From Candidatus Omnitrophota bacterium (GTDB taxonomy: Bacteria; Omnitrophota; Gorgyraeia; Gygaellales; JAQTUX01): a DNA stretch of 64,000 nucleotides. Made by a program: the position numbers and the translations under genes. The notes beneath the pieces are model-generated. The model saw only the letters and a program-made list of their open reading frames with translations. It was not told the origin of the DNA and did no database searches. Position 1 is the stretch's first letter; each line of letters begins with the position of its first letter. The stretch is taken from the NCBI GenBank assembly GCA_028707125.1, contig JAQTUX010000001.1, positions 468,142 through 532,141 on the forward strand, in the 5' to 3' direction. Below, piece by piece: positions 1 through 57,608 of the stretch.

Positions 1-301
1 ACTAAAAGACTCCCCATAAAGATTATTAGTAATCAAACGCAGAAAATGAGCACCATTAGAATTAAAATAGGCGAATTTTTTAAAACTCCCCAGAAAGTCA
101 CAGAGAAAAAGAACGAAGTAGCAATACCATTCGTATTAAATAAAGAGAAATTGTGGATGCGTTTGTCACTTGATAAAAAATAGGAAATAGTGATAGGAAA
201 TAGCGGGGACGGTTCTCTGGGATATTAGTTAGCGTAATAAGTTATGACACCTCGATTATAAATGCGAGGAGGCATTATCCGATAACAAAGGAGAGAGGGA
301 T

Positions 302-3557: not shown

Positions 3558-5035
3558 TGCCTGAAAAATTCTACATAACCACTCCGATCTATTACGTGAA
3601 TGCCTCTCCGCACATAGGGCATTCCTATACGACGGTTGCCGCTGATACTATCGCGCGTTTTATGAGGGGCAGGATCGGCAAGGAGAACGTGCTCTTTCTT
3701 ACCGGCACCGACGAGCACGGCCAGAAAGTGCAGCGCGCGGCGGAAGAGGCGGGCGTGGCCGTGCGGGAATTCACCGACAGGACATCCGGGAAATTCAGGG
3801 ATCTCTGGCAGGCGCTGAACATCCAATACGACGATTTTATACGCACTACGGAACAAAGGCACATTGAGGCGGTGCAGAAGGTTTTAACCATGCTTTATGA
3901 TAAGGGCGATATCTTTCAGTCAAAGTATGAGGGGCTCTACTGCACGCCCTGCGAGACATTCTGGACAGGGACTCAAGCCGAGGACGGGCTCTGCCCTGAC
4001 TGTAAGCGCAAGCTGGAAAGCATAAGCGAGACAAACTTCTTCTTTAATCTTTCTAAATATCAGGAAGCGCTTATGAAGCATATCGCCTCGCACCCGGGTT
4101 TTATCCGGCCCAGGATACGCGAGAACGAGGTGATGAGCTTTCTTGAGCATAACCGCTTGTCCGACCTGTGCATATCGCGCCCCAAAGAGCGGCTGGGCTG
4201 GGGCATCCCGCTGCCGTTCAGCCCGGATCATGTTACCTATGTCTGGTTTGACGCGCTGATAAATTACATCAGCGCGATCGGCTTCGCGCGGGACAGGAAG
4301 AAATTTGATAAATTCTGGCCGGCGGACATACACATCATGGCAAAGGACATACTCAGGCAGCACGCCATATACTGGCCGATAATGCTCATGGCCCTCGGCG
4401 AGAAGCTTCCCGAGGTAGTGTTCGCCCACGGCTGGTGGAAGATAGACGAGAAAAAGATGTCAAAGTCACTGGGCAACGTGGTTGACCCCTATGCCATGGT
4501 TGAGAAATACGGCGTAGAGGCCTACAGGTATTTCCTGCTCAGAGAGGTGCAGTTCGGCTTTGACGGCAACTTTTCCGAAGAGGCGCTGGTCAAGCGCGTC
4601 AACAGCGACCTTGCCAACGATCTGGGCAATCTCGCGCACAGGAGCGCCACGATGCTGGAGAAATACTGCGCCGGAAAACTGCCGGAGAAAGGCGGAGCGT
4701 TCCCCGCTGATTTTGACAAGGCGCTGAAAGAACTGCCTGAGGCGGTAGAGGCGTTCATGCTGGAATACAATTTCAGCGCCGCCCTTGAGAAGATATGGGG
4801 ACTTATAAACAAGGCGAACAAATACATAGAAGACACAAAGCCCTGGGCCCTGGCAAAAGAAAAGAAGGACAAGGAGCTGTATCTGTTCTTGAACCTTCTG
4901 GTTGAGGTGATAAAGACAGTGGCCGCGGCCCTTGCCGCGCTTATGCCTCAGGCCTCGCAGAAGCTGTTGAAGCAGTTCTCGGCTCCAGAGATCAAAAAGG
5001 GCGAGCCCTTGTTTCCGAGAATAGAGACCAATTGA
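3557..5035 (+). CDS. metG: methionyl-tRNA synthetase (short form without C-terminal tRNA-binding domain)
   Basis: HIGH motif (PHIGHSYT), KMSKS motif (KMSKSLGN) and zinc knuckle CTPCETF...CPDC. Confidence 0.85.
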   Translation: MPEKFYITTPIYYVNASPHIGHSYTTVAADTIARFMRGRIGKENVLFLTGTDEHGQKVQRAAEEAGVAVREFTDRTSGKFRDLWQALNIQYDDFIRTTEQRHIEAVQKVLTMLYDKGDIFQSKYEGLYCTPCETFWTGTQAEDGLCPDCKRKLESISETNFFFNLSKYQEALMKHIASHPGFIRPRIRENEVMSFLEHNRLSDLCISRPKERLGWGIPLPFSPDHVTYVWFDALINYISAIGFARDRKKFDKFWPADIHIMAKDILRQHAIYWPIMLMALGEKLPEVVFAHGWWKIDEKKMSKSLGNVVDPYAMVEKYGVEAYRYFLLREVQFGFDGNFSEEALVKRVNSDLANDLGNLAHRSATMLEKYCAGKLPEKGGAFPADFDKALKELPEAVEAFMLEYNFSAALEKIWGLINKANKYIEDTKPWALAKEKKDKELYLFLNLLVEVIKTVAAALAALMPQASQKLLKQFSAPEIKKGEPLFPRIETN

Positions 5036-5138
5036 AAGCGAAAAGCGCAAAGCGAAAAACGCAAAACTAAAACGTAAAGTTCAAAACGTTTTAAACTTTA
5101 AACTTTGGTTTTACGCTTTGCGCTTTACATTTTACGCT
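5036..5138. repeat. long imperfect palindromic intergenic element (copy 1); 3' 32 bp identical to the copy at 9959-9990
   Basis: aagcgaaaagcgcaaagcg...ggttttacgctttgcgctttacattttacgct; the two halves are reverse complements of each other. Confidence 0.6.
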
Positions 5139-5960
5139 ATGTTAACTGATACTCATTGCCACCTTGATTTCCCGGAATACGGCGAGGATCTGGAGCGGGT
5201 AATAGAGAACGCCAGGCAGGCGGGGATCGCCTTTATCGTGAATATCGGCTCCAGCTTGAAGTCCAGCCGGGAGGCAGTATCTCTGTCCGCGAAATACGAT
5301 TTTATTTATGCCGCGGTTGGCCTGCATCCTCACGAATGGAAAGGTTTCTCCGCCGCGGACATATCGGAGGTCAAGTCGTTAGCGGCAAATAAAAAGGTTG
5401 TGGCAATAGGCGAATGCGGGCTGGATTATCACAGGGCCCACGATAAGGAAAGGCAAAAACAGCTCTTTTCGGCGCATATAGATATAGCCAAAGAGAAGGG
5501 CCTGCCGCTGGTCATACACACCAGGGACGCGCACAATGATACGCTTGATATCTTAAGGCGCGCTTTCCCGGAGGGCGGTATCAGGGGGGTGGTGCATTGT
5601 TTTTCCGGCGACGAAAAGGTGCTTTCTGAGTGCCTTGAGCTGGGGCTGGACATATCCTTCACCTGCAATATAACATATCCCGCTAAGGGCTTTAATACCC
5701 GGCGGGATCCCGCCGATAATATACTTCAGCGGGACAAGAAGGCGGAGGATTTAAGAAAACTGGTCGGCATGATTCCGCTTGAACGGCTCTTGCTTGAAAC
5801 CGACGCGCCGTTCCTGCCGCCGCAGGAGTTAAGGGGCAGGCGTAATGAGCCGGCGTATGTGAAATACCTGGCTGACGCGATAGCGGAGATCAAGGGAATA
5901 AGTTTTGACGAGGTATCGCGCCAGACCGAAGCCAACGCCAGAAGGTTGTTTGGAATATGA
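5139..5960 (+). CDS. tatD: TatD family metal-dependent DNase/hydrolase
   Basis: MLTDTHCHLDF start motif and conserved His/Glu/Asp metal ligands (GLHPHE, ECGLDYH, VIHTRDA, VVHCFSG, ETDAPF). Start placed at the internal Met of the ORF beginning at 5118. Confidence 0.85.
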   Translation: MLTDTHCHLDFPEYGEDLERVIENARQAGIAFIVNIGSSLKSSREAVSLSAKYDFIYAAVGLHPHEWKGFSAADISEVKSLAANKKVVAIGECGLDYHRAHDKERQKQLFSAHIDIAKEKGLPLVIHTRDAHNDTLDILRRAFPEGGIRGVVHCFSGDEKVLSECLELGLDISFTCNITYPAKGFNTRRDPADNILQRDKKAEDLRKLVGMIPLERLLLETDAPFLPPQELRGRRNEPAYVKYLADAIAEIKGISFDEVSRQTEANARRLFGI

Positions 5961-7081
5961 GATCCAGAGTGTCCATAGTCAGGTGCGGCAGTTACGACAG
6001 GGAAGCGGTGCGGCAGGCGGTAGATGACGCCGTCGGCCTGCTCGGCGGCATAACCGCCTTTGTCAAGCCCGGCCGCAAAGTGCTGGTCAAGCCAAACCTG
6101 CTTATGGCGCAGGGCCCGGAAATACCGGTATGCACGCATCCGGAATTCATAAGGGCGGTGGTAAGGATGTTGAAGGCGATCAATGCAGAGGTGCTTATCG
6201 GCGACGGCCCCAGCGTCTGGGGAGGCCGCTCGGAAAATGTGGATGAGGTCTATGATGTCTGCGGCATCAGAGAGATAGCGCGGGATGAGGGCTGCGGTAT
6301 CGTCTATTTTGACAAGCATTCCTGGTTTGGCAAGATACCCCTGGCCGCGGTCCTTAATGAGGTGGACTGCGTGGTGTCTTTGCCCAAACTTAAGACGCAC
6401 AATTTTACGGTGCTTACCGCCGGGGTAAAAAATCTTTTCGGCCTGGTCAGCAGCAGTTTTAAACTCAAGTTCCATAGAGACTTTTTTGACGCGGAGCATT
6501 TTTCCTCCGTGCTGGTTGACATCTACGAAAAGGTAAGGCCGGCGCTGACTATAATTGACGCGGTAACCGCTATGCAGGGAGATGGTCCTGGCCCCAGCGG
6601 CACCGCGAAGCAGCTAGGTTTAGCGCTGGCTTCGCGTGATGCCGTGGCGCTTGACAGCGTGGCCTCTACGATCATGGGACTGCACCCGGAAAATGTGCCT
6701 ACGAACAGGATCGCAGAAAAAAGGCAGTTGGGTAATATAAAAAAAGACAGCATAGAATTATTAGGCGAAGATTTAAGCGAGATAAATGTAGGGCATTTCC
6801 AGCAGGCAGGCGCCTCTATCATATTGAGGATCCCCGCCCCCTTAGCCGCGGTCATCAAAAGGTTCCTTAAGGCCTGGCCGCTTGTGCTGAGCAGGGAATG
6901 CAGGAGATGCCGCAAATGCGCAGCTGCCTGCCCTGAAGGGGCGATATCATTCAACGAAAATAAAGACAGAATAGAGATAGATTACGGCAAATGCATCAGT
7001 TGTTTCTGCTGCCAGGAGACCTGTCCGTATGCCGCGATCGCCACGAGGAAGAGTTTGCTGGCCAGATTGATCGGCTTGTAA
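5957..7081 (+). CDS. DUF362-family protein with C-terminal 2x[4Fe-4S] ferredoxin domain
   Basis: C-terminal CRRCRKCAAACP and CISCFCCQETCPYAAI cluster motifs. N-terminal region resembles DUF362. Confidence 0.55.
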   Translation: MRSRVSIVRCGSYDREAVRQAVDDAVGLLGGITAFVKPGRKVLVKPNLLMAQGPEIPVCTHPEFIRAVVRMLKAINAEVLIGDGPSVWGGRSENVDEVYDVCGIREIARDEGCGIVYFDKHSWFGKIPLAAVLNEVDCVVSLPKLKTHNFTVLTAGVKNLFGLVSSSFKLKFHRDFFDAEHFSSVLVDIYEKVRPALTIIDAVTAMQGDGPGPSGTAKQLGLALASRDAVALDSVASTIMGLHPENVPTNRIAEKRQLGNIKKDSIELLGEDLSEINVGHFQQAGASIILRIPAPLAAVIKRFLKAWPLVLSRECRRCRKCAAACPEGAISFNENKDRIEIDYGKCISCFCCQETCPYAAIATRKSLLARLIGL

Positions 7082-7097
7082 GTACGCTCGCGCGTCT

Positions 7098-7922
7098 TTG
7101 AGCAAAGGGAAGCGTAGAATGAAGAAAATATTTATAATCCTGGTAATAGCATCATTGATATTATCAGGGTGGACAATAAAAAGAGATACAATAAGCAGGG
7201 GCATGTTGTCCCATAGAATAGGGCTTATTTATCACGCTATACCTAGAGTAATACAGAGCGAAACGGGATCTCTCGGTTTAGATAATATTAAGCAATATAT
7301 TTATAGAAATGTCCACCGTTACGGGAATATCCGTGATGACGGCCCTGGATGGATGCTGATCTACGGAGAGGCCTGGTGCGACTCGGTGGCGAATATATAT
7401 ATTCGGTTGGCGGAGGCGCTTGATATAAGAGGATATTTGATTTTTTTAGGAAACGGCAGCCATTCAGTCGCGTATGTTACTCCGGGGCATACGGCCTTGG
7501 AGAATATAGATTATCTTCAAGAAAATGCCATTGTTGTCGATCTGGAGGCAGGCATTATATATAAATGTAAACCAAGGGATATCTGCGGTGTTGATAAGAG
7601 ATATTGTAAGAAGCCCGCGATTTTTTTGATCAATCAGCCGATTTCGGAATATCGGCCTTTCAAAACATGGTTCTATAAAAAAGTATTCCCTCGCATTCCG
7701 GTAACCTGGCTTAAGAAATATATCCAGATCGCCTTGATCTGCAGAAGGTTTGAACGGGGCGAAAGAGAATACTATCTTGCCAGGGTCCACCAGTTGTTTT
7801 TTGACTATGATGCGGCCGCTAGAGGTTATCAGGGGGTAATTAAGAGGCATCCCGCCACGCGTTGGGCTGACCTGGCGGGATATTGGGCGGAACAGATATC
7901 CCTGCGATCGGACCAGAGTTGA
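7098..7922 (+). CDS. hypothetical exported/membrane-anchored protein, possible transglutaminase-like cysteine protease fold
   Basis: N-terminal TM helix. GEAWCDSV...HSVAYV...D spacing is reminiscent of a Cys-His-Asp transglutaminase-like core; this is a weak call. Confidence 0.3.
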   Translation: MSKGKRRMKKIFIILVIASLILSGWTIKRDTISRGMLSHRIGLIYHAIPRVIQSETGSLGLDNIKQYIYRNVHRYGNIRDDGPGWMLIYGEAWCDSVANIYIRLAEALDIRGYLIFLGNGSHSVAYVTPGHTALENIDYLQENAIVVDLEAGIIYKCKPRDICGVDKRYCKKPAIFLINQPISEYRPFKTWFYKKVFPRIPVTWLKKYIQIALICRRFERGEREYYLARVHQLFFDYDAAARGYQGVIKRHPATRWADLAGYWAEQISLRSDQS

Positions 7923-7934
7923 TTTGGAGATAAT

Positions 7935-8975
7935 ATGCCTTTGGCTACTATTGCCTGGAGTAAAGGAAATATAAAGATAATTGACCAGACCAAACTGCCG
8001 CTAAAACTGGAATATATCTATTGCCGCGATATAAATGCGTTGTGGAAGGCGATAAAGTTATTGAAAGTGAGGGGCGCGCCGGCGCTGGGAGCGGCAGCAG
8101 GGTTGGGCGTGTATCTGGGGATCAAGGGTTTTAAGGGCAAGGATATAAACGTATTCAGGCAGCGTCTTAATAAGGTCATTTCCTATCTTGGCTCAAGCCG
8201 GCCTACCGCGGTGAACCTTTTCTGGGGCTTAAACCGCATGCGCTCCGCGTTTGAGGCGAACAAACGCCTTGCCGCGGGAGAAATAAAAAAGGCGCTGTTC
8301 CGCGAGGCAATGGACATAATGGAAGAAGACAGGCGGATATGCAGAAAGATGGGCGCCTACGGAGCGCGCTTGATAAAAAACGGCGACTCTGTGCTTACGG
8401 TCTGCAACGCCGGAAGCTTAGCCACGGTTGATTACGGCACAGCCCTCGGCGTGCTTTACAGCGCCAAAGAGCGGGGCAGGCGCTTTAAGGTCTATTCCTG
8501 CGAGACGCGGCCGCTGCTTCAGGGCGCGCGGCTTACTGCCTGGGAACTGAAGAAGAACAGGGTTGACGTTACGCTTATCTGCGATAATACGGCTGCAAGT
8601 TTGATGGATCAGGGAAAAATAAACAAAATCATTGCCGGAGCAGACAGGATCGCGGCAAATGGCGACGCCGCGAATAAAATAGGCACCTATATGCTGGCAG
8701 TGCTGGCCAAATTTCACAATATACCTTTCTATATAGCGGCGCCTGCCTCTACGTTTGACTTGAAGATCAAAAGCGGCAGGCAGATCCCCATTGAGCAGAG
8801 GGATGCCCGTGAGGTAACAGAGTTATTGCGTAAACGCGGCACAGCGCCGAGGGGCGTCAAGGTGTATAATCCGGCGTTTGACGTGACGCCCGCGGGGCTG
8901 ATCACCGCGATAATCACGGAGAAGGGGATCATAAATAAACCGAATACGGTGAAGATCAAGAGTTTGATCGGATGA
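7935..8975 (+). CDS. mtnA: S-methyl-5-thioribose-1-phosphate isomerase (eIF-2B alpha/beta/delta family)
   Basis: N-terminal WSKGNIKIIDQTKLP...RGAPALG, GSLAT and CDNTAA motifs characteristic of MtnA. Confidence 0.75.
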   Translation: MPLATIAWSKGNIKIIDQTKLPLKLEYIYCRDINALWKAIKLLKVRGAPALGAAAGLGVYLGIKGFKGKDINVFRQRLNKVISYLGSSRPTAVNLFWGLNRMRSAFEANKRLAAGEIKKALFREAMDIMEEDRRICRKMGAYGARLIKNGDSVLTVCNAGSLATVDYGTALGVLYSAKERGRRFKVYSCETRPLLQGARLTAWELKKNRVDVTLICDNTAASLMDQGKINKIIAGADRIAANGDAANKIGTYMLAVLAKFHNIPFYIAAPASTFDLKIKSGRQIPIEQRDAREVTELLRKRGTAPRGVKVYNPAFDVTPAGLITAIITEKGIINKPNTVKIKSLIG

Positions 8976-9871
8976 AGACGCTAAAAGACATCGGAGAATT
9001 CGCTCTGATAGACCGGCTCAGCCGCGGCATTAAAGCGCGCAGTCCCGTGGTAAAGGGCATTGGAGACGACTGCGCGGTGCTGGAGTATAGCGGAAGGGAT
9101 TATTTGCTTGCGGGCTCTGATATGATCGTGGAGGGGGTGCATTTTAAGCGTTCTGCCCCGCCGTTCTATATCGGCAGGAAGGCGCTCGCCGCCGCCTTAA
9201 GCGACATCGCGGCAATGGGGGGGGAACCGATAGCCGCGCTTATTTCCATAGGGCTGCCTGAAGGCCTGCCGCTTAGTTTTATGGACGGGATATACAGGGG
9301 CATCAGGGCGTTGGCGCGCGAATATAATGTCAACCTGATCGGCGGAGATACATCCGCCTCTTCAAAGATAGTCATTGATGCCGTTGTTTTAGGCAGGGTG
9401 GAGAAAAACCGCCTGGTTTTAAGGAGCGGGGCAAAGAAGGGGGATATTATTTTTGTCACGGGCGGATTGGGGGGTTCTATCAAGGGCAGGCATTTTACAT
9501 TTGAGCCAAAGATAAAAGAGGCGCGCTTTCTGGTGAAGAATTTCAGGGTCAACGCGATGATAGATATATCCGACGGCCTGCTTGGCGATCTGGGGCATAT
9601 TTTAAAACAGAGCAAGGCAGGCGCCGTGATCTTTGAGGAACTGATCCCCCTACGCAAGGCGGCCTCAGGCTTCAGGGAGGCGCTGATAATGGGAGAGGAC
9701 TACGAATTGCTTTTTACCACCCCTGTTTCCCAGGCGAGGAAGATAATAAAAATGACAGGCGGCAGATATCGGGAGATCGGGGAGGTCCTGGACAGGGAAC
9801 GCGGCTTTACGCTGGTCACCAAAGATTGCAGGCAGGTGAGATTGAAAGCAGAGGGATTTAGGCATTTTTAA
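8972..9871 (+). CDS. thiL: thiamine-monophosphate kinase
   Basis: AIR-synthase-related fold with IGEFALIDRL...GIGDDCAVL N-terminus and GGDTS motif. Confidence 0.75.
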   Translation: MKTLKDIGEFALIDRLSRGIKARSPVVKGIGDDCAVLEYSGRDYLLAGSDMIVEGVHFKRSAPPFYIGRKALAAALSDIAAMGGEPIAALISIGLPEGLPLSFMDGIYRGIRALAREYNVNLIGGDTSASSKIVIDAVVLGRVEKNRLVLRSGAKKGDIIFVTGGLGGSIKGRHFTFEPKIKEARFLVKNFRVNAMIDISDGLLGDLGHILKQSKAGAVIFEELIPLRKAASGFREALIMGEDYELLFTTPVSQARKIIKMTGGRYREIGEVLDRERGFTLVTKDCRQVRLKAEGFRHF

Positions 9872-9990
9872 AGCGTAGAGCGTAAAACGAAAAGCGCAAA
9901 ACTAAAGTGCAAAACTTAAAACTTTAAAACAAGAAAACTTTAAACTTTAAGTTTTGGTTTTACGCTTTGCGCTTTACATTTTACGCTAAC
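9872..9990. repeat. long imperfect palindromic intergenic element (copy 2)
   Basis: agcgtagagcgtaaaacgaaaagcgcaaaac...ggttttacgctttgcgctttacattttacgct; same family as 5036-5138. Confidence 0.6.
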
Positions 9991-9995
9991 ATCTT

Positions 9996-10412
9996 ATGCA
10001 AGTAATCACTAATTCTGAGAAAGAGACGTTTGATCTGGGCAGGAAATTGGCGGCGCGCTTAAAAAAAGGGGACATAGTCGCGCTTGAGGGAGAACTCGGC
10101 GCGGGCAAGACCATATTCGTCAAGGGCGTTGCCGCCGGCCTGGGGTTTGACAGGGACAAGGTCGTGAGCTCGTCCTTTGTCTTGATCAGGGAATATAAGG
10201 CGAAGCTCCCCCTGCATCACTTTGACCTTTACCGGCTGAAGAATAAATGCGAATTCGCCGACTTAGGATACGAGGAATATTTTTTTGGCGATGGTGTCTG
10301 CCTTGTGGAGTGGGCTGATAAAGCAAGGGAGTTCATCCCGCCGCGGGCGATCCGCATATCGTTTAAGGTCGCGGGCAAGGATAAGAGGAAGATTGAATAT
10401 TCTGGGCTTTGA
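9996..10412 (+). CDS. tsaE: tRNA t6A37 biosynthesis ATPase TsaE
   Basis: Walker A GELGAGKT within ~140 aa of YjeE-like architecture; followed by tsaB. Confidence 0.8.
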   Translation: MQVITNSEKETFDLGRKLAARLKKGDIVALEGELGAGKTIFVKGVAAGLGFDRDKVVSSSFVLIREYKAKLPLHHFDLYRLKNKCEFADLGYEEYFFGDGVCLVEWADKAREFIPPRAIRISFKVAGKDKRKIEYSGL

Positions 10413-11049
10413 TACATCCAGCAGGATGCTGGCTATAGTTGTGGGCAATGATAAAGGCGTGCTTGCCGCCCGCAACATCAACGCGCGCGTTAAGCATTCG
10501 GTTATGATAATGCCCGCGATAGAGGCGCTGCTTAAAAAGGCGGGGCTTAAGAAGGGGCGCATCGATGCTGTGGCAGCGGGCCTTGGCCCGGGTTCTTTAA
10601 CAGGTATAAGGATCGGCGTATCCACGGCAAAAGGGCTCTGCCTTGGCCTGGACAGGCCGGCCATAGGCATATGCAGTTTGGATATCATTGCCCGTAACGC
10701 GGATAGCGGCGACAGCGATGTATGTGTGCTAGTAGACGCGAAGCGCTCATTGGTATATTCCGCCGTATATAGAGGCGTAAAGCGCGCGAGGCCGCCGAGA
10801 TTATCTTCTCTGGAGGATGCCTTGCGAGGGCTCAAACCAGGCACCCTGTTCCTGGGCGACGCCATAGGCATATACGGAGATCGGATAAAAGAAAAGGTTA
10901 GCCAGGCGCGCTTTGCCGCGCAAAGACAGTGGTATCCGCGCGCGGAAAATATCCTGGAGATCGCGTTATCGCCTAAGAACAGGAAGGCCGCGGCAGAGAA
11001 GCTGGTGCCGTTGTATCTTTATCCCAAAGAATGCCAGATCAGGAAATGA
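10393..11049 (+). CDS. tsaB: tRNA t6A37 biosynthesis protein TsaB (inactive Kae1/YeaZ paralogue)
   Basis: ILGFDTSS N-terminus and GPGSLTGIRIG motif. Likely TTG start at 10393, inside the longer ORF that begins at 10285. Confidence 0.65.
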   Translation: MNILGFDTSSRMLAIVVGNDKGVLAARNINARVKHSVMIMPAIEALLKKAGLKKGRIDAVAAGLGPGSLTGIRIGVSTAKGLCLGLDRPAIGICSLDIIARNADSGDSDVCVLVDAKRSLVYSAVYRGVKRARPPRLSSLEDALRGLKPGTLFLGDAIGIYGDRIKEKVSQARFAAQRQWYPRAENILEIALSPKNRKAAAEKLVPLYLYPKECQIRK

Positions 11050-12161
11050 AGAAAGAATTCTTCCGTCCCACAATAGCCGAGATAGACCTGGGCGCGCTGG
11101 AATATAATTTCCGGCAGATAAAGCGCAGGGTCTCGTCGCATACAAAGATACTGGTGACGGTCAAGGCAGACGCCTACGGACACGGCATACTGCGGGTTTC
11201 CAAGCGGCTGGTACGCTGCGGCGTGGATTATTTAGGCGTTGCTTCTCTTGATGAGGCCGTATGTTTGAGAAGGGCAGGGGTGAAATGCCCAATACTTGTC
11301 CTGGGCGTGATCTTCCCCGAACAGGCCGGGACGGTCATCGATCACGATCTGACGCAGACCGTCTGCACCCTTGATGTCTGCCGCGCCCTGGACCGGCTGG
11401 CGGCGCGCAGGCACAAACGGGTCTCTGTCCACGTAAAGATAGACACAGGTATGGGCCGGCTGGGTGTCAGCTGGGGCGACGCCGAAGAATTCATCAGCGC
11501 CCTGTATAAGCAGATGAAGCACGTTTCCATAGAGGGCATCTTTACCCATTTTCCCCGCGCCGATGATAATAAAGCCCTTACCGGACGGCAGATAAGCATG
11601 TTCAGCGCCCTGGTGCGCCGGCTTGAGAAGAAGGGCATATTCATCCTGTTCAAGCACTGCGCCAACAGTATGGCTGTGCTGGATTATCCCGGAAGCCATT
11701 TTAATCTTATAAGGCCGGGACTGATCATTTACGGCCTGTATCCCAAAGACGGCTTAGACATACGGCTGAAACCGGCGATGGGACTGAAGTCAAAGATAGT
11801 TTTTATGAAATCAGTGAAAAAAGGCACGCCGTTAAGCTACGGCCATACCTATATAACCTCTAAAGATACCTCAGTAGCAGTTGTCCCCATTGGTTACGGC
11901 GACGGCTATTCCCGCGGCCTATCCAATAAGGCCCAGGTTTTGATCAAGGGCAGGCGTTTTCCTGTTGTGGGCACTATCTGCATGGACCAGATCCTGGTTG
12001 ATACAGGCAGGTTAAAGGCAAAGGTGGGAGATGAAGTTGTCTTGATCGGCCGTCAGGGAAAACAGGCAATTACCGCTGAAGAGATCGCCCGCCTCACGCG
12101 CACCATCCCTTATGAAGTCGTCTGCCAGGTAGGCAGGCGCGTCCCGCGGATATACAGGTAA
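11031..12161 (+). CDS. alr: alanine racemase
   Basis: PLP-lysine motif VTVKADAYGHGI and C-terminal beta-domain. Its 3' 70 nt are duplicated at 21792-21872. Confidence 0.9.
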   Translation: MPDQEMKKEFFRPTIAEIDLGALEYNFRQIKRRVSSHTKILVTVKADAYGHGILRVSKRLVRCGVDYLGVASLDEAVCLRRAGVKCPILVLGVIFPEQAGTVIDHDLTQTVCTLDVCRALDRLAARRHKRVSVHVKIDTGMGRLGVSWGDAEEFISALYKQMKHVSIEGIFTHFPRADDNKALTGRQISMFSALVRRLEKKGIFILFKHCANSMAVLDYPGSHFNLIRPGLIIYGLYPKDGLDIRLKPAMGLKSKIVFMKSVKKGTPLSYGHTYITSKDTSVAVVPIGYGDGYSRGLSNKAQVLIKGRRFPVVGTICMDQILVDTGRLKAKVGDEVVLIGRQGKQAITAEEIARLTRTIPYEVVCQVGRRVPRIYR

Positions 12162-12168
12162 TATTTAC
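12088..12168 (+). repeat. left copy of the 81-bp direct repeat (alr 3' end plus 9 nt); right copy at 21792-21872
   Basis: 61 nt are identical (cccgcctcacgcg...gtcccgcg), followed by 20 nt with 4 mismatches. Confidence 0.8.
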
Positions 12169-12244: not shown

Positions 12245-15200
12245 GTGTCGTTCACGAACAAATTACCTATCCTGATTTTAAAGAAAATAACCCAAACAGG
12301 GATACTCTGCGTATCCCTGTTTTTGTTTTATCTGCCATTTGCATTTGCAGACATATCTGCATCAGCCAATGTCGGTCTGACGTTAAACAGCGTTAGAGGC
12401 CGCACTATCATGGCAGGCGCCCGGCCGATTTCATTCACGTTGCGAGTTCAATACAACGGCACAAATCAACTGACTTTTGGCGCAGAAGGATTGCGGGGAA
12501 ATGCCACTTTAGACGCCCAGACAGGCAGGTTCTACTGGATGCCAGAGGAAACTGATGTAGGAACACACCCTATCACTTTCCGGGTAACAGATGGTGTAGA
12601 AACCGACCAAAAGACAGTCACATACACTATTCTGCATAACTCTACTCCTTACACGGGCTCAGTCAGTCCCGATGATGAGATAGTCCGCTCCAATGAACAG
12701 TTGGAGTTTATTGCTACTTATTTTGACAACGCCGGCTGGCAGGACATACAGGATGTGTATATGTCTATCGGAGGGGCTTACTTCAGGTATAACCTACCTG
12801 AAAATAAGCTATATGCCTCAAGTAACTTTTCCCAATGGAATGGCGGTTATACCCCAGGCACAGCACAGATCATACAGGTAGACTTGGACGAATGGCAGGC
12901 AAGACTGGATTGTTCCAAAGTTAATATAAATGGTTCAGGTAAGGCATTAGAAATTAAATGGCCCATTCTATTTATAAATAAGACGAGGCACAATATAAGA
13001 AAGAACGTCTCTTTGTATGCTAAAGATAGAAACAACCTTGATTCCGGCTGGAGGGAGTCAGGGGAGATTAAAATTAGAGGATTAAAAGGCCGCATCCTTA
13101 CCTTTGGTCAGACCATAATAGATACTATTTCTAAAGAAAACTTTACTGTGACCTACACCTTTAGCGCCTCTAAAGACGACTACATCTACATGGCATTTGC
13201 CAAGACAGAAGGAAGTGACTTCCAGCCCTACCTTCAGTTATTTGATCCAAGCGGCAGCCATATTGCTTACGTATACGATACCACAGCCAACGCGCTCGGC
13301 ACGACACTAACCGCAACAGGCAGATATGTGTTAACCGTCTCAGACCACAACGGCGAAAATACCGGCAGCTACGCTTTGACCCTTCAGCGCTTTAATAACC
13401 CGGGCCAGGCATCTGCCCTAACTGCAGGCCAGACCCAATCCGCCTCCATATCAGCCCCCTCTGAAATAGACGCCTACAGCTTTACAGCGGCCTCAGCCGA
13501 CACCTTGATCATAAACCTGGTCAAGACATCAGGAGAGTTTAGGCCCTACATAGGAGTATATGACGATAAGGGCAAGCTGCTTAAAAAAGTTGATACCTCT
13601 TCTTCAGTCACCTTAAGTATGCCGCTTGCTCGGGCAGGGGTTTACTACATCTATGTGAGGGACTCCTATAACTATGAGACAGGAAGCTACAGTATAGCCC
13701 TGCAGGGCGCCAGCAATCCTGAACTTATCCAGCTCTCCTTCGGCCCTACAGTAACAGGCGCTATCTCTGCTGCAAGCCCGACAGTCACCTACACCTTTAG
13801 CGCCTCTAAAGACGACTACATCTACATGGCATTTGCCAAGACAGAAGGAAGTGACTTCCAGCCCTACCTTCAGTTATTTGATCCAAGCGGCAGCCATATT
13901 GCTTACGTATACGATACCACAGCCAACGCGCTCGGCACGACACTAACCGCAACAGGCAGATATGTGTTAACCGTCTCAGACCACAACGGCGAAAATACCG
14001 GCAGCTACGCTTTGACCCTTCAGCGCTTTAATAACCCGGGCCAGGCATCTGCCCTAACTGCAGGCCAGACCCAATCCGCCTCCATATCAGCCCCCTCTGA
14101 AATAGACGCCTACAGCTTTACAGCGGCCTCAGCCGACACCTTGATCATAAACCTGGTCAAGACATCAGGCCAGTTTACGCCTCGTCTGACAGTATATGAC
14201 AGTAAGGGCAAGCGGCTTGAGAGCGCTAATATCTTTTCAGATACCTTAAGCGCCTCACTTCCTCAGGCAGGCGTCTACCACATCTATGTAGTGGACTCCT
14301 ATAACTATGAGACAGGAAGTTATGACATAAGCCTGCAGAGCGCCAGTAATCCCGATGGCGCTGTAGACATTGCTTTCGGTGAGACAGTAACGGGTGAGAT
14401 TTCTTCTCCTATGGATACGGATGTATATGGCTTTACCGTAAATGAAGGTGATAATTTATACGCGGATATACGTTTTCCCAAAGTCAGCGGCAATAGTTAT
14501 TTCTCTCCATATGTGCGGCTGTATGATAGGTCAGGCAATATGATTGCCGATTCTACCTCGGGTATGCTTCTTCACTCTTTGCCTTCCGCAGGAACTTATT
14601 ATATTTTTGTCTCCGACAATTATATGGATGCCACAGGCAGCTATCAACTTACTCTGTCCAATGAGACCCCTGATATAGATAATCTTTCAGTTACGCCCAA
14701 TCCTTTTTCTCCGGACGAAAGCGGCACCTGGGTAGATCTGGATACAGGGGAAATATTCAACGACCCGGGGCCTAACCGCGTTCTGGACGATGTAGCCAAT
14801 ATTTCTTTTACCGCCTCTATGCAGGGATTTTTTGATATCAAGATTATTGATAGTAACAGCCAGCTGGTCAGGCAGCTTGTTTATGACGTATTAACTCCGG
14901 ATCACCGGACTAATTTGATACGAGTGCAGTGGAATGGCCGCAGCCAGAATAGTGATTTAGTTCCAAACGGCGCGTATACGCTGATAGTAAACTCCGGAAA
15001 TGTTGACAGGTGTCTGACCGCGACAATTAATGTAAACAAAATTGTTTTTATCACTATTGCCAGAATAACGCCAAATCCTTTTTCTCCTGACCGTGACGGT
15101 GTAGACGAAACAACCACCCTTTCTTACAGTTTATCTGAGAATTCCTATGTCAGCGTAGAGATTTATAACCAGCAAAATACTCTATTAAGAAAGTTAGCAG

Positions 15201-16717: not shown

Positions 16718-19700
16718 CCGCCTCCTGAAGATCCTCTCGGTATTCACGCTTTTCTTCTTTGTTTCCAATATCTTCATACCCCCTGTAGCCCTTGCCGAGC
16801 TTCCCTGCTGGAACGATGCCTCGCTTGCTTCCGGAGAGGGCGGGGTAGATGATGCAGCCACCGCAGGCGGCAAGCCCGCTGGCATAAACCAGAAGAACAG
16901 GACAGAGGCAGCAGATCCTGTTGATGTCTCAAACGGCAATTTCTTCTACCAGAACCAGGATTTATCCATCCCTTCACGAGGACTCTCCTTAGAGATAAAG
17001 CGCTTCTACAACAGTTTAGACACCTACGAAGGCCCCTTTGGCATAGGCACAAGCCACAGCTATAATATATTCTTGTTGGAGATTTCAGAAGCAAGCCAGA
17101 CATACGTTCTAAGGCGTAACGCCAACGGCTCAAAGGACAGATTCCTGCGGAATGCCGACGGTTCCCATACACCTTCAGCTGGCTGCTATGACACCTTAAC
17201 CAAAGACACAACCGGCTACCTGATACAGGACAAGTATGGCTTCATCTATCGCTTTGGTTTAGATGGTCGCCTTAACTCAATCACTGACCGAAACAACAAC
17301 ACAATCTCCTTAGAGTATGACTCACAATCATCTGTATTAAGCAGAGTCAGCGACAGCTTAAGCCGCTTTATTGAATTCGCTTATAACCCCCAGCGCAAGA
17401 TAAGCCAGGTAAGCGACTCTACCGGCCGCCTGATCTCATATGAATACGATTCAGACGGCAATCTAATCTATGTAACCACTCCTGCCACAGGGGATTATCC
17501 TTCAGGACTGACTACCACATACGCCTACGACGATAAGCACAGGTTAACCTCCATAACAAACGCCAGGGATAGGCGATATATATCCCTGGAGTATGATGAA
17601 AATAGCCGCGTAAAGGATCTTACCTATGGAGCAGGCGTATATCGCTTTAGCTATAAGAGCGCTCTTACAACCCTTATTGACCCCAGGGGCTTTACGACAG
17701 AATACGAGCTTAATACAGATGGCACAGTCCAGAGCCAGAAGCAATACGCCGGCAGCTCATCTTATCAAACCAGATACGAATACAACCAGAACCGCGAGCG
17801 CACCAGGATAACCTATCCTGAGGGCAACTGGGTTAAATACACCTATGATAATAAGGGCAGCATTCTGGAAATCAGGCGCAAGAAAGCCAACGCCTCTGAC
17901 AGTGATGACCCTGCAAATGACATAGTAGCTGCCTTTAGCTATGAGCCGCAGTTTAACTTCGTCAAGACCGCAACAGACCCTAAGGGCAACGTTACTACCT
18001 ATGATTATGACTCAAAAGGAAATCTCATCAAAATAATCTATCCGGCTGTTAACGGCGTAAAACCCGAAGTTAAATTCGCCTATAGTGCTTACGGCCCGCC
18101 AACCAGCGTAACAGACCCTAACGGTAATGTAACTACCTATGATTACGACCCTGATACTGGATACTTAGTCAAAACAACCGCTGCTCAAGGCGTTCTTAAC
18201 CTTATCACCCGGTTTACCTACGACACAACCGGTAACATCAAAACCGTAACCGACCCCAAAGGCAGCACCACGACATTTGAATACGACAGCCACAACAACC
18301 TGATTAAGACCACATCCGCTTCACCATTTAACTATGAGACCCTCTATAAATACGATGAGAACGATAACCTGATTGAGCTCCACAGACAGACCGGCGACCC
18401 TGATAATCCCTGGCAGACAACCTCCTACACCTATGATATCCTTGACCGGCTGGACTCTGTCAAAGACGCCATAGGCAATACCTCTAACTTTATCTATGAC
18501 TTAAACGGCAACCGCCGCTCGCTTGCAGATGCGGAAGGTAATACTACTACTTATGAATACGATGAACGCAATCTACTCTGGAGGGTAACCGACGCAGAGA
18601 ATAATGTTACAGAATACTCCTACGATACAAACGGCAACCTCAAGCAAATCACTGACGCAAAAGGCAATGCTACCGTCTACACCTACGACAGCTTTGATCG
18701 GCTCATCTCTACCACCTACGCTGACGACTCAATAGAGGAATACACCTATGACGCCAATTCCAACCTCATCACCAAAAAAGACCCCAAAGGCCAGGTCATC
18801 ACCTACGCCTATGACTCCATTAACCAGCTGGACTTAAAGACCTATCCTGATAAATCAAGCGTTGACTATGTTTATGACATCGGCTCCCGGCTTGTTGATG
18901 TCATTGACAAAATCGGCACCATACACTATGACTATGATGCGGCCAGCCGAATTACCAGCGTAACCTATCCCGGCAATAAATCCGTCTCTTACGAATACGA
19001 CGCCAATTCCAACCGCAGCAAGCTAACCTACCCCGATAATACCTATCTTACCTATATATATGATGAACTCAACCGCCTGACCAATGTAGTTGCCCCATTG
19101 ATGGGGCAAGGCAGTGCCGTCGCCTCCTACACCTATGACGCCCTCTCCAGACGCACCCGGCTTGACTACCTCAACAATACCTACTCGCTCTATGACTATG
19201 ACCCAGCCAGCCGCCTGACAACGCTTACCAATGTCTCTAACTCTATACCTAACCCCTACTCCTACACCTATGATAACGCGGGCAACAGGACGTCATTGCG
19301 AGGAGCCGAAGGCGACGAAGCAACCTACACCTATGACAAGACCTACCAGCTCACAGCCGTCAACTACCCTGACGGCTTTGCCTTCTTTGACACTGCCTAC
19401 GACTATGATGAGATAGGCAACCGCACGACAAACTACACCTCAAACTCCCTCAACCAATATACCAAGGCAGGTACAACCAACCTCGCCTACGACAGCAACG
19501 GCAACCTCACCAATGACGGCAGCTTCACCTACGCCTATGACTACGAGAACCGGCTGGTGAGCGCCTCGTCATTGCGAGGGAGCGAAGCGACCGAAGCAAT
19601 CTACGCCTACGACCCCTTCGGCAGGCGCACCTCAAAGTCATTGCGAGGAGCCGAAGGCGACGAAGCAATCTCCTACATCTACGATGGCGACCAGATCATC

Positions 19701-20962: not shown

Positions 20963-21022
20963 TATAACGAAAAAACGCCAACGAAGCTTTACATAACTAG
21001 CAATACATAATGGGCATAACGG

Positions 21023-21036
21023 GGACGGTTCTCTTT
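21023..21036 (+). repeat. REP-like motif GGGGACGGTTCTCT (copy upstream of RAYT)
   Basis: Same 13-14-mer occurs at 206-220 (+) and as the reverse complement at 21775-21790. Confidence 0.6.
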
Positions 21037-21774: not shown

Positions 21775-21790
21775 AAGGAGAACCGTCCCC
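21775..21790 (-). repeat. REP-like motif (inverted copy downstream of RAYT)
   Basis: aggagaaccgtcccccc is the reverse complement of GGGGACGGTTCTCCT. Confidence 0.6.
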
Positions 21791-21791
21791 C

Positions 21792-21872
21792 CCCGCCTCA
21801 CGCGCACCATCCCTTATGAAGTCGTCTGCCAGGTAGGCAGGCGCGTCCCGCGCGTATACAAATAATATTTAC
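21792..21872 (+). repeat. right copy of the alr 3'-end direct repeat (degenerate C-terminal coding fragment ...RLTRTIPYEVVCQVGRRVPRVYK*)
   Basis: 61/61 nt identical to 12088-12148, then 16/20 identical. Its stop abuts the convergent lptF/G stop. Confidence 0.8.
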
Positions 21873-24751: not shown

Positions 24752-24845
24752 GGAGAAAAAGTTGTAGAATATATTTGCAATACTCGGGTCCGGGATTGGC
24801 TGTTATTTCCGGAGGTTAAATAGTTGATGGCCGGGCCGCCATCTG

Positions 24846-36330: not shown

Positions 36331-36700
36331 GCTATGGTGTCCTTCATCTGAGGAATGCCCAAAAGGCCGTTTGTCAATTAACCTACTCGATTCAATCCTA
36401 CTACAACCATACAAATCAATCAAGAGAATAGTCCCCGCGGGCTAGGCCGCTCGCTTCTTGCTAATGCAATGCGTGTTCGGCTCGGCTTGGGGCTGGCGGC
36501 GGGCGGCGGCGCCAGCCCCAAGCGTCCTAGCTTTCAATCCTTTTAAAACCTACCTATGCTCGGCCACTATGCCGCATTCACCAAATAAAAAACTCGGCGG
36601 TGCGGCATGCCGAGCTTCTTGGTGGAAAACTTAGTATTCTCCTTACCAGAACTAATACTAACTATACTTGCGTCTTGAGATTAAAAGAGTTACAATGAAA
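36331..36700 (+). repeat. left ~370-bp inverted repeat of the module; carries an outward-terminating hairpin and an inward promoter
   Basis: Reverse complement of 40380-40815, apart from a ~70-bp internal tandem duplication in the right copy. ctgaggaatgcccaaaaggccgtttgtcaattaacc...gagttacaatgaaaac. Confidence 0.85.
36668..36696 (+). promoter_or_regulatory. sigma70-like promoter TTGCGT-17-TACAAT inside the left IR; ATG of 36703 lies ~7 nt after the -10 (leaderless-like)
   Basis: Hexamers and spacing read directly from the sequence. An identical promoter sits in the right IR facing inward. Confidence 0.5.
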
Positions 36701-36702
36701 AC

Positions 36703-40379: not shown

Positions 40380-40815
40380 TGAACTTTCGTTTTCATTGTA
40401 ACTCTTTTAATTTCAAGACGCAAGTATAGTTAGTATTAGTTCTGGTAAGGAGAATACTAAGTTTTCCACCAAGAAGCTCGGCATGCCGCACCGCCGAGCT
40501 TTTTTATTTGTTCATTGCGGCATGGTGGACGAGCCTGGATAGTTTTTTAGAAGGTTAAGCGAGGACACTGCGGCTGGGGCTGCCCCCACCCAGCCCCAGC
40601 CGCAAACCGAGCTGAACACGCATAGCATTAGTAAGAAGCGAGCGGCCTAGCGAGCGCCAAGCGAAGGCCTGCCCCAAGCCGAGCCGAACACGCATTGCAT
40701 TAGCAAGAAGCGAGCGGCCTAGCCCGCGGGGACTATTCTCTTGATTGATTTGTATGGTTGTAGTAGGATTGAATCGAGTAGGTTAATTGACAAACGGCCT
40801 TTTGGGCATTCCTCA
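40380..40815 (-). repeat. right inverted repeat of the module (with promoter TTGCGT-17-TACAAT on the minus strand at 40395-40423 and a terminator hairpin)
   Basis: Reverse complement of the left IR. Contains ctcggcatgccgcaccgccgag plus a T-tract. Confidence 0.85.
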
Positions 40816-40907
40816 GAAGCAGTGAGGAGGGAGTTTCCCGACCATCGTGTCACATAGGTCGGGATCCCGCCGAGTTACTATATAGCAGCGGGAGAACCCG
40901 AAAATAG

Positions 40908-42507: not shown

Positions 42508-42937
42508 TATGTTAGAATTGGGTAAGGAAAGGAGGGGGTGATCTGGTCTCGACCTGAGACGAGCCGGGTAAGAGCAGCATGCCGCGGACGCAGGGTAGGC
42601 CGCGTTAACAATCCTTGCACATATAAACGCTAACGAACAGTTGACGTTTAACGGGCTGATGAGCACAATGGAAGTGGTTCCTTCCACTTTTGTTGCGCCT
42701 CAGTTCGCGCTAAGCCTCGTTCGTTAATTAACGAACGAGCCTCTACTTAGCCCTGTCTGGGGGCTGGGATAGAGCGGTTACAGACTGGCTCCAATAGTTT
42801 GCCTTTGTAGTTGGGGCGAGATCTTAAAAGGCTGCTGTTCCGGCGATTCTGTTTATCGAAGCGGCGGAAAGTAAGCATAAAAGATAAACTAAGCATGTAG
42901 CGGCTTTTATCGGGCTGCTTGGGGACGCGGGTTCGAT

Positions 42938-43578
42938 CGGTAAAGGTCGACTCCCGAAGCAATTCGGGATGAAAAATCTGGCTTACATCAGGGAAACCCT
43001 AACGTAGAGACGAGGGCAACCCTGAGGGGTGATGAGCCCTGCAGAGACTGCCTCTTTTAAGAGGCGATAGGAGGCGATACCGTTGGAAGAAGTCGAGAAA
43101 GCGTATATCGCGGGAATCGTTGATGGCGAAGGGACTGTAACCTTGATGAAGCACCATAAAAATGAGACGCATATCCCTTTTGTTGGGATTGCTAATAATA
43201 ATTTGGGGCTTCTGAAGTGGATTAAGTCTCTGGTGGGCGGCAATATTTGTTCGAAGAAGAAAAGATTGCCGCATCACAATGATTCCTATGTCTTAAACAT
43301 AAGACAGGATAGGGCTTTACGTTTTCTCGGCGAAATAGGCGAATACCTGATCGTAAAGAAACCACAGGCAGAATTGATACTGCAGAAGTATAAGTCTGTC
43401 ACGCATCGTAACGGAAGATATACTCCTGCGTTGCTGCAAAAAAAGATGCAGTTGGTTGCCGAGATCAGAAGGCTTAACCAGCGGTAAATATATGCCTCTT
43501 ATAATATGCCAGGCTCCGTCAGGGATTTAGGCGGATGAAGAGATAGTCCACGCTATTTGGAAAACAAATAGATAAGTG
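42938..43578 (+). mobile_element. group I-like intron (641 nt) in the tmRNA T-loop, encoding a LAGLIDADG homing endonuclease
   Basis: Exon 1 ends in U that can pair with intron G in a P1 helix (exon UCGAU / intron GUCGA, loop cgguaaag). Intron ends in G. LAGLIDADG ORF sits inside. Exon junction restores TTCGATT T-loop. Confidence 0.65.
43083..43487 (+). CDS. LAGLIDADG-family homing endonuclease (single-motif, I-CreI-like size)
   Basis: KAYIAGIVDGEGTV motif near the N-terminus, 134 aa, basic C-terminus; intron-internal. TTG start with GGAGG RBS. Confidence 0.7.
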   Translation: MEEVEKAYIAGIVDGEGTVTLMKHHKNETHIPFVGIANNNLGLLKWIKSLVGGNICSKKKRLPHHNDSYVLNIRQDRALRFLGEIGEYLIVKKPQAELILQKYKSVTHRNGRYTPALLQKKMQLVAEIRRLNQR

Positions 43579-56007: not shown

Positions 56008-56082
56008 CGGGGCGTGGCTCAGTTTGGCTAGAGCGTGTGGTTTGGGACCACAAGGTCACAGGTTCGAATCCTGTCGCCCCGA
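56008..56082 (+). tRNA. tRNA-Pro (anticodon TGG)
   Basis: CGGGGCGTGGCTCAGTTTGGCTAGAGCGTGTGGTTTGGGACCACAAGGTCACAGGTTCGAATCCTGTCGCCCCGA; anticodon loop TTTGGGA. Confidence 0.9.
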
Positions 56083-56092
56083 CTGGATAAAT

Positions 56093-56167
56093 GTCCCTGT
56101 AGCTCAGTTGGATAGAGCATCTGCCTTCTAAGCAGAGGGTCGCCTGTTCGAATCAGGCCAGGGACGC
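56093..56167 (+). tRNA. tRNA-Arg (anticodon TCT)
   Basis: GTCCCTGTAGCTCAGTTGGATAGAGCATCTGCCTTCTAAGCAGAGGGTCGCCTGTTCGAATCAGGCCAGGGACG; anticodon loop CTTCTAA. Confidence 0.9.
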
Positions 56168-57531: not shown

Positions 57532-57608
57532 GGTGGGTGTAGCTCAGTCTGGTTCAGAGCACTTGACTGTGGCTCAAGTGGCCGCGGGTTCAAATCCCGT
57601 CACCCACC
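57532..57608 (+). tRNA. tRNA-His (anticodon GTG) with extra 5' G(-1)
   Basis: GGTGGGTGTAGCTCAGTCTGGTTCAGAGCACTTGACTGTGGCTCAAGTGGCCGCGGGTTCAAATCCCGTCACCCACC; anticodon loop CTGTGGC. Confidence 0.9.

Follow-up and report, generated by a model that had tools for sequence, protein, structure and literature searches.

The intervening sequences (IVSs) of bacterial 23S rRNA are sporadic hairpin insertions whose classical sites are helix 25 or 45 of that molecule; a type carrying an open reading frame (ORF) is found in Coxiella, Leptospira and alphaproteobacteria, and an ORF-less type of 90–150 nt in Salmonella. In Coxiella the IVS, a 428-nt "selfish" element that RNase III excises, has an inverted-repeat stem 28 bp long, carries an S23p ORF in the loop and contains two to three tandem GACAGAT heptamers, in numbers that differ from strain to strain (PMC4990558). 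Here we describe two palindromic elements, A and B, that occupy gaps between co-directional genes in one operon of a Candidatus Omnitrophota bacterium, within a 64-kb stretch of contig JAQTUX010000001.1 (64,000 nt, hereafter the window). Among the known kinds of element with which we compared them, the 23S rRNA IVS is the best fit, and A and B are probably miniature, ORF-less, IVS-like members of a dispersed and recently mobile palindromic family that is kin to cassettes carrying a gene of the Pfam family PF05635.

Heptanucleotide long simple-sequence repeats (LSSRs) include the short tandemly repeated repetitive (STRR) sequences of cyanobacteria, the GGGAATC repeats of Xanthomonas and the TAACTGA repeats of Beggiatoaceae (PMC4692102, PMC4679880). 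Rehm et al. found 70–75 inverted GGGAATC pairs between aligned ORFs per Xanthomonas genome (PMC4692102), and the TAACTGA arrays closely precede Shine-Dalgarno-less start codons (PMC4679880). Hairpin-type MITEs (miniature inverted-repeat transposable elements) such as ERIC, Correia (CREE), RUP and Nezha are ORF-less, intergenic and about 100–150 bp long with inverted termini; they are co-transcribed, can alter the fate of the mRNA and give rise to filled and empty sites between relatives (PMC3184786). PF05635 itself is the family of Avd, the accessory protein of diversity-generating retroelements (DGRs) (PMC10053308).

The family of A and B shares with the 23S rRNA IVSs a long inverted-repeat stem, a loop with or without a PF05635 (S23p) gene, heptamers in the stem region (GACAGAT in Coxiella, GAGGACG and GTCTTCT in Azospirillum), a sporadic distribution and, for the ORF-less form, a size of about 100 nt; transcription within the host RNA is probably a further common trait. 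Unlike the rRNA IVSs, A and B lie between protein-coding genes and belong to one sequence family that extends over several phyla. Intergenic tandem 7-nt units in at least three copies define LSSR and STRR arrays, and A and B have them. As in those arrays, the 7-mers lie near or overlap stop codons or precede starts without a Shine-Dalgarno sequence, often as inverted pairs; unlike them, the units of A and B are degenerate, keep a fixed order and together form a sharply bounded, defined element about 100 bp long. We found no mention of PF05635 in the LSSR and STRR papers cited above, and our literature search returned no paper linking heptamer repeats in general to this family. MITEs resemble A and B in size, absence of an ORF, inverted termini, intergenic position and filled and empty sites, but A and B lack a clear target-site duplication, have heptad-periodic arms and have no transposase parent that we could see, and the ORF-carrying relative of their family encodes a four-helix-bundle protein. 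That protein and Avd both belong to PF05635, but unlike DGRs, A and B carry no protein gene.

Anatomy and position of the two elements

The elements and the codons that frame them are as follows.

5033 to 5035, plus strand: stop codon TGA of metG, at the 5' foot of hairpin A
5035 to 5138, plus strand: element A, an ORF-less heptad-repeat palindrome of about 15 units of 7 nt in the metG/tatD gap (nhmmer E = 2.7e-27)
5107 to 5138, plus strand: the 32-mer GGTTTTACGCTTTGCGCTTTACATTTTACGCT within the T-rich 3' arm of A; it includes the family-wide conserved core ACGCTTTGCGCTTTAC
5139 to 5141, plus strand: start codon ATG of tatD, abutting the 3' foot of hairpin A, without a Shine-Dalgarno sequence
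8972 to 8975, plus strand: mtnA stop and thiL start overlapping as ATGA, an empty site that in the closest relative holds a family copy of about 105 bp
9869 to 9871, plus strand: stop codon TAA of thiL, overlapping the first unit of B
9869 to 9987, plus strand: element B, the second copy, in the thiL/tsaE gap, in the same orientation as A and with a 14-nt loop insertion (nhmmer E = 1.9e-24)
9956 to 9987, plus strand: the 32-mer GGTTTTACGCTTTGCGCTTTACATTTTACGCT within the T-rich 3' arm of B
9996 to 9998, plus strand: start codon ATG of tsaE, 8 nt past B, without a Shine-Dalgarno sequence

A reading of the window made from the sequence alone (the sequence-only reading) had proposed two palindromic intergenic copies that share an identical 32-bp 3' arm immediately before the tatD and tsaE start codons. 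Both copies are real, and their likeness covers the whole elements: the right arms agree at 47 of 49 nt and the left arms at 32 of 37, with 14 additional nucleotides in the loop of B. GGTTTTACGCTTTGCGCTTTACATTTTACGCT occurs exactly twice in the window, each time on the plus strand, and had no match in 100 dinucleotide-preserving shuffles. A lies 0 nt from the tatD ATG and B 8 nt from that of tsaE. Each element takes up the whole gap between two co-directional genes, its 5' foot lying at the upstream stop codon and its 3' foot at the downstream start; A begins 1–2 nt past the metG stop, and its last base is the one preceding the tatD ATG. The identities of metG, tatD, thiL and tsaE were confirmed by NCBIfam. 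A search of the window with the family profile found only A and B, which, as the sequence-only reading had held, are unrelated to the motif GGGGACGGTTCTC, present in three copies elsewhere in the window. The window contains no rRNA, and A and B are not located in helix 25 or 45 of a 23S rRNA gene. Rfam at its gathering threshold gave nothing at either element, and a permissive search returned only sub-threshold models of eukaryotic microRNA-precursor hairpins, on the minus strand.

The internal structure of both elements is heptameric. Cut in sevens, A reads AAAGCGA AAAGCGC AAAGCGA AAAACGC AAAACTA AAACGTA AAGTTCA AAACGTT TTAAACT TTAAACT TTGGTTT TACGCTT TGCGCTT TACATTT TACGCT. The 5' arm thus comprises about seven degenerate heptads, each with three or four A residues followed by GCG, ACT or CGT, and the 3' arm the complementary T-rich heptads. 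Identity at lag 7 is 0.64 in A (z = 8.3) and 0.62 in B (z = 8.4), lags 14 and 21 are elevated as well, and Tandem Repeats Finder (TRF) reports period 7 with 3.4–5.4 copies per arm in both elements. Since the periodicity is present in both arms, each element is an inverted pair of degenerate heptamer arrays. The palindromes are imperfect, the arms being 79% complementary in A (5037–5092 and 5083–5138, centred on AAAACGTTTT at 5083–5092) and 78% complementary in B (9879–9927 and 9939–9987).

Both strands are predicted to fold well. The minimum free energy of the sense RNA is −32.0 kcal/mol for A (z = −3.5) and −38.3 kcal/mol for B (z = −4.8), and that of the minus-strand RNA −41.5 kcal/mol (z = −5.5) and −47.2 kcal/mol (z = −6.7), respectively; no shuffle matched the native folding energy of either element on either strand. 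The long-hairpin potential noted in the sequence-only reading is thereby upheld, at about 35–45 paired bases, with 34–39 predicted base pairs on the sense strand.

Dispersal of the family and its gain in close relatives

In a collection of species-representative genomes, a 19-mer from the arm matched 85 loci. The matches in Bacteroidota are simple (CGCTTTR)n arrays that lie beside arrays of other heptamers. Homologous copies of 95–125 bp, in which the order of unit variants is kept (AGCGYAAAACTCAAAGCGNAAAGCGCAAAACTAAAACGTAAAACTTAAAAC and GTTTTAAGTTTTAAACTTTTAGTTTTACGCTTTGCGCTTTACAYTTTACGCT), lie between unrelated co-directional genes in at least 10 further contigs of Omnitrophota. The ends of the family copies are sharp (AGCG...CGCT), and their neighbours are unrelated to one another, with products that by our reading begin, for example, like AtpD or DnaE. 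Typically, a stop codon lies 0–4 nt from the 5' foot and a start codon 0–15 nt from the 3' foot. A metagenome scan with a 23-mer gave four loci, all with a recognizable whole element of about 100 nt; these served as additional family members and not as an estimate of copy number. The 19-mer had no match among viral contigs.

The sequence-only reading had compared A and B to MITEs, and the description as a MITE-like dispersed palindromic intergenic repeat is borne out by these copies across Omnitrophota contigs. The likeness between A and B is not a matter of local duplication only, as homologues occur in unrelated contexts in many genomes. On either side, Logan contigs break off within B; we did not take this as a sign of high copy number because a palindrome alone can break contigs. 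A low-threshold TRF census of repeat periods in relatives was dominated by noise, with similar counts in shuffles, and was not used.

The closest relative accessible to us, from Logan sample SRR33086907 (L087 and L097), has a TatD 88% and a ThiL 95% identical to those of the window; L088 is a more distant relative, at about 70%. Their gene junctions compare as follows.

thiL/tsaE: copy B in the window; in the closest relative an orthologous copy with the same loop insertion and few substitutions; in L088 no element
mtnA/thiL: a 4-nt ATGA overlap in the window; in the closest relative an A-like copy of about 105 nt; in L088 a 4-nt overlap
metG/tatD: copy A in the window; in the closest relative an unrelated palindrome, about 45 nt long, of CGCTAAT units; in L088 a 9-nt gap

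By this distribution the family was gained at least three times in a single 5-kb operon of a shallow clade, and hence has been mobile recently. At the filled mtnA/thiL junction of the closest relative (L097, 1–138), the mtnA frame enters the inserted element for about 22 codons and stops in its loop, so that a housekeeping protein acquires a new C-terminus through the insertion. The tatD start is at the same position in the 88%-identical homologue of the closest relative. A Shine-Dalgarno sequence is missing from tatD in the window and in four relatives, and the L088 gene starts 9 nt past metG. In more distant relatives, the metG/tatD junction contains palindromes of still other units, namely AGTAGGN (L094), GNTAGAT (L095) and TGGTTAT (L093).

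Many gaps of the operon in relatives hold hairpins or arrays of lineage-specific short units (L095 5231–5375, 8557–8624 and 10725–10788; L094 3776–3864; L087 3553–3600), among them the 7-nt units GNTAGAT and AGTAGGN, the 6-nt units TAAGGT and CTTAAC, and the 10-nt units TAAGGGGTAG and CGCTAATTAC. The operon also differs in gene content: a 274-aa ORF at 7098–7922 of the window, between a DUF362/ferredoxin gene and mtnA and without an NCBIfam or Pfam match, is present in the closest relative (L087, L096) and absent from L088.

Kinship with PF05635 cassettes and proposed working

The evidence for kinship comes from loci in which arms of the AAAGCG type surround a gene. In the Omnitrophota locus L057, the arms enclose a 116-aa ORF that matches PF05635 (23S rRNA intervening-sequence protein) with E = 8.9e-22; the nhmmer profile of the element matches both arms, and an ORF-less copy (L052) with a near-identical right arm is present in the same metagenome-assembled genome. 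AAAGCG-type arms also surround PF05635 genes in Paceibacterota (L071), with a protein 67% identical in amino acid sequence to that of L057, in Caldatribacteriota (L118), in Elusimicrobiota (L019) and, between proA and nadD, in Omnitrophica (L108 and L111). The Elusimicrobiota protein matches PF05635 with E = 1e-36 and has a sub-threshold match to bAvd, PF22296 (30.1 bits versus a cut-off of 40). The gene is about 350 nt long in the full-length relatives. When the arms of the L057, L108 and L118 cassettes are joined, A and B align with them end to end at 80–88% identity over 93–100 nt (z = 11–16), and the lowest match of arms is that of A to the Caldatribacteriota arms, at 77%. A and B are therefore the same element without the ORF. 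Proteins of this subfamily number more than 5,400 at E ≤ 1e-10; among the top 120, identity across phyla is 66–94%, and many of these are on contigs shorter than 2 kb.

Short tandem arrays accompany PF05635 genes in general. All 20 of the PF05635 genes examined, a set that includes the Azospirillum 23S rRNA IVS and 12 cyanobacterial plasmid genes, have such arrays, mostly of 7-nt and in some cases of 8-nt units, in at least one flank, and by our reading of the flanks 14 of them have complementary arrays on both sides. Period-7 arrays make up 0.30–0.77% of the surrounding 35–50 kb. The plasmid genes come from a tblastn search that gave 23 records, mostly from Nostoc, Calothrix and Anabaena, and the flanks were read for 14 of the genes found. 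At a Bacteroidota locus, 5.5 kb from the array through which that locus had been recruited, a PF05635 gene has GTTGGCN units upstream and GGCCAAC units downstream. Further examples are listed here.

L098, Geminocystis: GGGAAAA upstream, TTTTCCC downstream
L101, Nostoc C052: GGGAACA (4 copies) upstream, TGTTCCC (7 copies) downstream
L122, Stanieria: AGGCAGA upstream, CCTTCTG downstream
L125, Picosynechococcus, 8-nt units: GGAGATAA upstream, TATCTCCT downstream
L107, Azospirillum, a classical IVS inside 23S rRNA: GAGGACG (3.9 copies) upstream, GTCTTCT (4.1 copies) downstream

Because the same architecture recurs with unrelated arms in cyanobacteria, in Bacteroidota and in the rRNA IVS, gene and repeat arms appear to travel together. 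PF05635 genes with heptamer or octamer arms were also seen inside CRISPR-cas operons of Pseudanabaena (L100), Anabaena 90 (L102) and Picosynechococcus (L125), in cas6/cas4 or cas10/cmr3 gaps; this recurrence may be meaningful or may reflect mere tolerance of insertions there.

The full-length relatives share the architecture of the ORF-carrying 23S rRNA IVSs, and A and B can therefore be read as IVS-like hairpins in operon junctions from which the ORF is missing. They would be transcribed within the operon mRNA without causing termination, since tatD and tsaE start 0 and 8 nt after them, which leaves no room for a promoter. A promoter inside the element was considered and rejected: the sole match, TTTACA-18-GATACT at 5124–5153, would place the −10 box inside tatD. 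In the mRNA, the predicted long imperfect hairpin would set the stop and start codons side by side, and a ribosome arriving at the stop codon would melt the foot of the stem and free the start region, so that an insertion need not abolish the translational coupling of tatD and tsaE, which lack Shine-Dalgarno sequences. By analogy with the rRNA IVSs, the stem could further serve as an RNase III substrate for intercistronic processing, and cleavage of the A and B stems by this enzyme is likely. The sequence-only reading had suggested that the elements shape the expression of the downstream genes, and judging from their placement such an effect is plausible. The 7-nt periodicity, the gain and loss polymorphism and the kinship with PF05635 cassettes are additions to that reading.

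Several observations weigh against our interpretation of A and B. The window contains no PF05635 gene by iterated-profile search, and both elements are ORF-less; either loss of the ORF from a cassette or its insertion into the loop of an earlier palindrome could account for the two forms. In both A and B the antisense strand folds better. Among 10 members of the family, 8 have their better folder in the strand that lies opposite the conserved T-rich arm, and the consensus energy of the family is −27.3 versus −7.7 kcal/mol, again in favour of the strand opposite the T-rich arm. Orientation relative to the flanking genes is not fixed (5:2). Selection for a stable mRNA hairpin is accordingly not claimed. 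No consistent or unambiguous target-site duplication was found among the copies examined, a finding also unfavourable to an ordinary MITE. TA or TAA often flanks family copies, although not the left end of A, but it is ambiguous as a duplication because it forms part of the palindrome or of a stop codon.

The stronger antisense folding and the mixed orientation suggest that polarity is a property of the element itself. In the cassettes compared (L057, L071 and L108), the strand with the T-rich 3' arm is the sense strand of the PF05635 ORF. The ORF-carrying relatives that we saw encode only the PF05635 protein and no transposase, and beside the cassettes examined there was neither a reverse transcriptase nor a template or variable repeat.

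A wider generalization, which we put forward only tentatively and consider doubtful, is that the heptamer repeats of bacteria (the cyanobacterial STRR and the general LSSR excess) are largely the arms or relics of one selfish hairpin cassette whose sole gene is PF05635, with the 23S rRNA IVSs as copies residing in rRNA and the ORF-less copies as counterparts of MITEs. In such a cassette, the PF05635 protein, a pentamer that binds nucleic acid and is kin to a cofactor of reverse transcriptase, would bind the heptad arms and aid spread or maintenance, which would make the cassette a mobile element lacking a recognizable transposase; a cDNA or single-stranded DNA intermediate would then be in line with the better folding of the strand antisense to the ORF. 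If true, this link would unite three orphan observations of long standing as aspects of one element: the over-abundance of tandem 7-mers between bacterial genes (STRR, 1990; Mrazek 2007), the sporadic hairpin IVSs in 23S rRNA, and the functionless though very abundant proteins named "four helix bundle / S23 ribosomal", which are kin to the DGR protein Avd. Apart from their origin, the elements have practical consequences: such palindromes break short-read assemblies, their insertion alters called gene ends, as where mtnA of the relative reads into the element, and they sit where translational coupling operates in the compact genomes of uncultured phyla.

Rival origins and other features of the window

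An ordinary MITE, that is, a deletion derivative of an insertion sequence mobilized in trans by a transposase, would account for the small size, the missing ORF, the terminal inverted repeats, the dispersed contexts and the filled and empty sites at mtnA/thiL. Loops of the family also take up foreign inserts (nested GC-rich palindromes in L018 and L091, a GTCATTGCGAGG-type repeat in L014), and TA is often present at both ends, as in ERIC and Correia elements (PMC3184786). PF05635 would then be a passenger in some loops. However, it is the only ORF between the arms in five independent genomes of four phyla, and PF05635 genes with unrelated arms share the architecture in cyanobacteria, Bacteroidota and the rRNA IVS; nor was a transposase-carrying relative seen in the 723 kb of loci inspected, which is not a genome-wide search. 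We regard this origin as unlikely.

A purely local origin, by polymerase slippage of heptamers with template switching and no transposition, the likeness of A and B being due to gene conversion, is suggested by the occurrence of palindromes of different units at the metG/tatD junction in different lineages (CGCTAAT, AGTAGGN, GNTAGAT, TGGTTAT) and by copies that differ in unit number and register. Moreover, Mrazek 2007 (as cited in PMC4679880 and PMC4692102) reported that among long simple-sequence repeats in bacteria those with heptanucleotide units are the most over-represented. Yet independent slippage cannot yield one consensus of about 100 nt whose unit order and termini recur across unrelated contexts and different genomes, and the closest relative has an A-like copy at mtnA/thiL where the window has a 4-nt gene overlap, which together make slippage very improbable.

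The sequence-only reading had also considered a bidirectional terminator-attenuator. A Rho-independent terminator or attenuator after metG and thiL would be in keeping with the long stable hairpin directly past the stop codon, the U-rich 3' arm and a GC-richer inner stem (AAAGCGCAAAGCG and CGCUUUGCGCUUU) followed by ACAUUUUAC. The proposal does not hold up well: there is no T-run after the stem, our terminator scan calls neither element, tatD and tsaE begin 0 and 8 nt past the elements, and full-length relatives are found within rRNA and within operons of cas, pro and isp genes, in which ending transcription would do harm. We give it very little weight. The same scan calls a textbook bidirectional terminator at 12294–12322, about 130 nt downstream of alr, with a 12-bp stem and T-runs on both strands, showing that this genome uses canonical terminators.

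A repetitive extragenic palindromic (REP) element mobilized by a RAYT tyrosine transposase, to which the position of A and B between unidirectional genes and the strand asymmetry expected of elements acting as single-stranded DNA might point, is hardly credible and the REP-like label falls, since REPs are 20–40 bp long and bear at one end a GTAG or CGTC tag that is unpaired (PMC3733652), whereas A and B are 104–119 bp long, AT-rich, heptad-periodic and without either tag, and no RAYT gene was seen beside any copy (the window proteome was not fully scanned).

Several other repeats are present in the window. The motif GGGGACGGTTCTC lies at 205–217 (plus strand), 21021–21033 (plus strand) and 21778–21790 (minus strand), three occurrences against 0.06 expected; the first is directly preceded by a direct heptamer array, AAATAGG in 3.9 copies at 178–203, and the third abuts an 81-nt direct repeat. 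The two copies of that repeat, at 12088–12168 and 21792–21872, are 95% identical, the first forming the 3' end of alr (ORF 11031–12161), and they bracket about 9.7 kb of DNA with lower GC content and YD/Rhs-type repeats (13–20 kb). This segment resembles an island that has integrated at the alr end, its attachment sequence being duplicated. Three GTCATTGCGAGGAGCCGAAGGCGACGAAGCAA-type copies lie within the YD-repeat region (19292–19353, 19568–19629 and 19637–19698); a palindrome of the same type fills the gap downstream of tatD in L095 (6201–6322) and is nested in the loop of the L014 heptad element.

Farther along, inverted repeats about 4 kb apart at 36342–36702 and 40389–40822, with 156 nt 98% complementary and 123 nt 96% complementary, enclose a segment of 34–39% GC that contains a 410-aa ORF without a Pfam match and an 810-aa ORF with a weak TPR match; the segment could be invertible or mobile. 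The window also encodes a tmRNA, an nhaA-I riboswitch candidate (47.4 bits versus a gathering score of 37) and three tRNAs, at 42542–42958, 24786–24844, 56008–56166 and 57533–57608.

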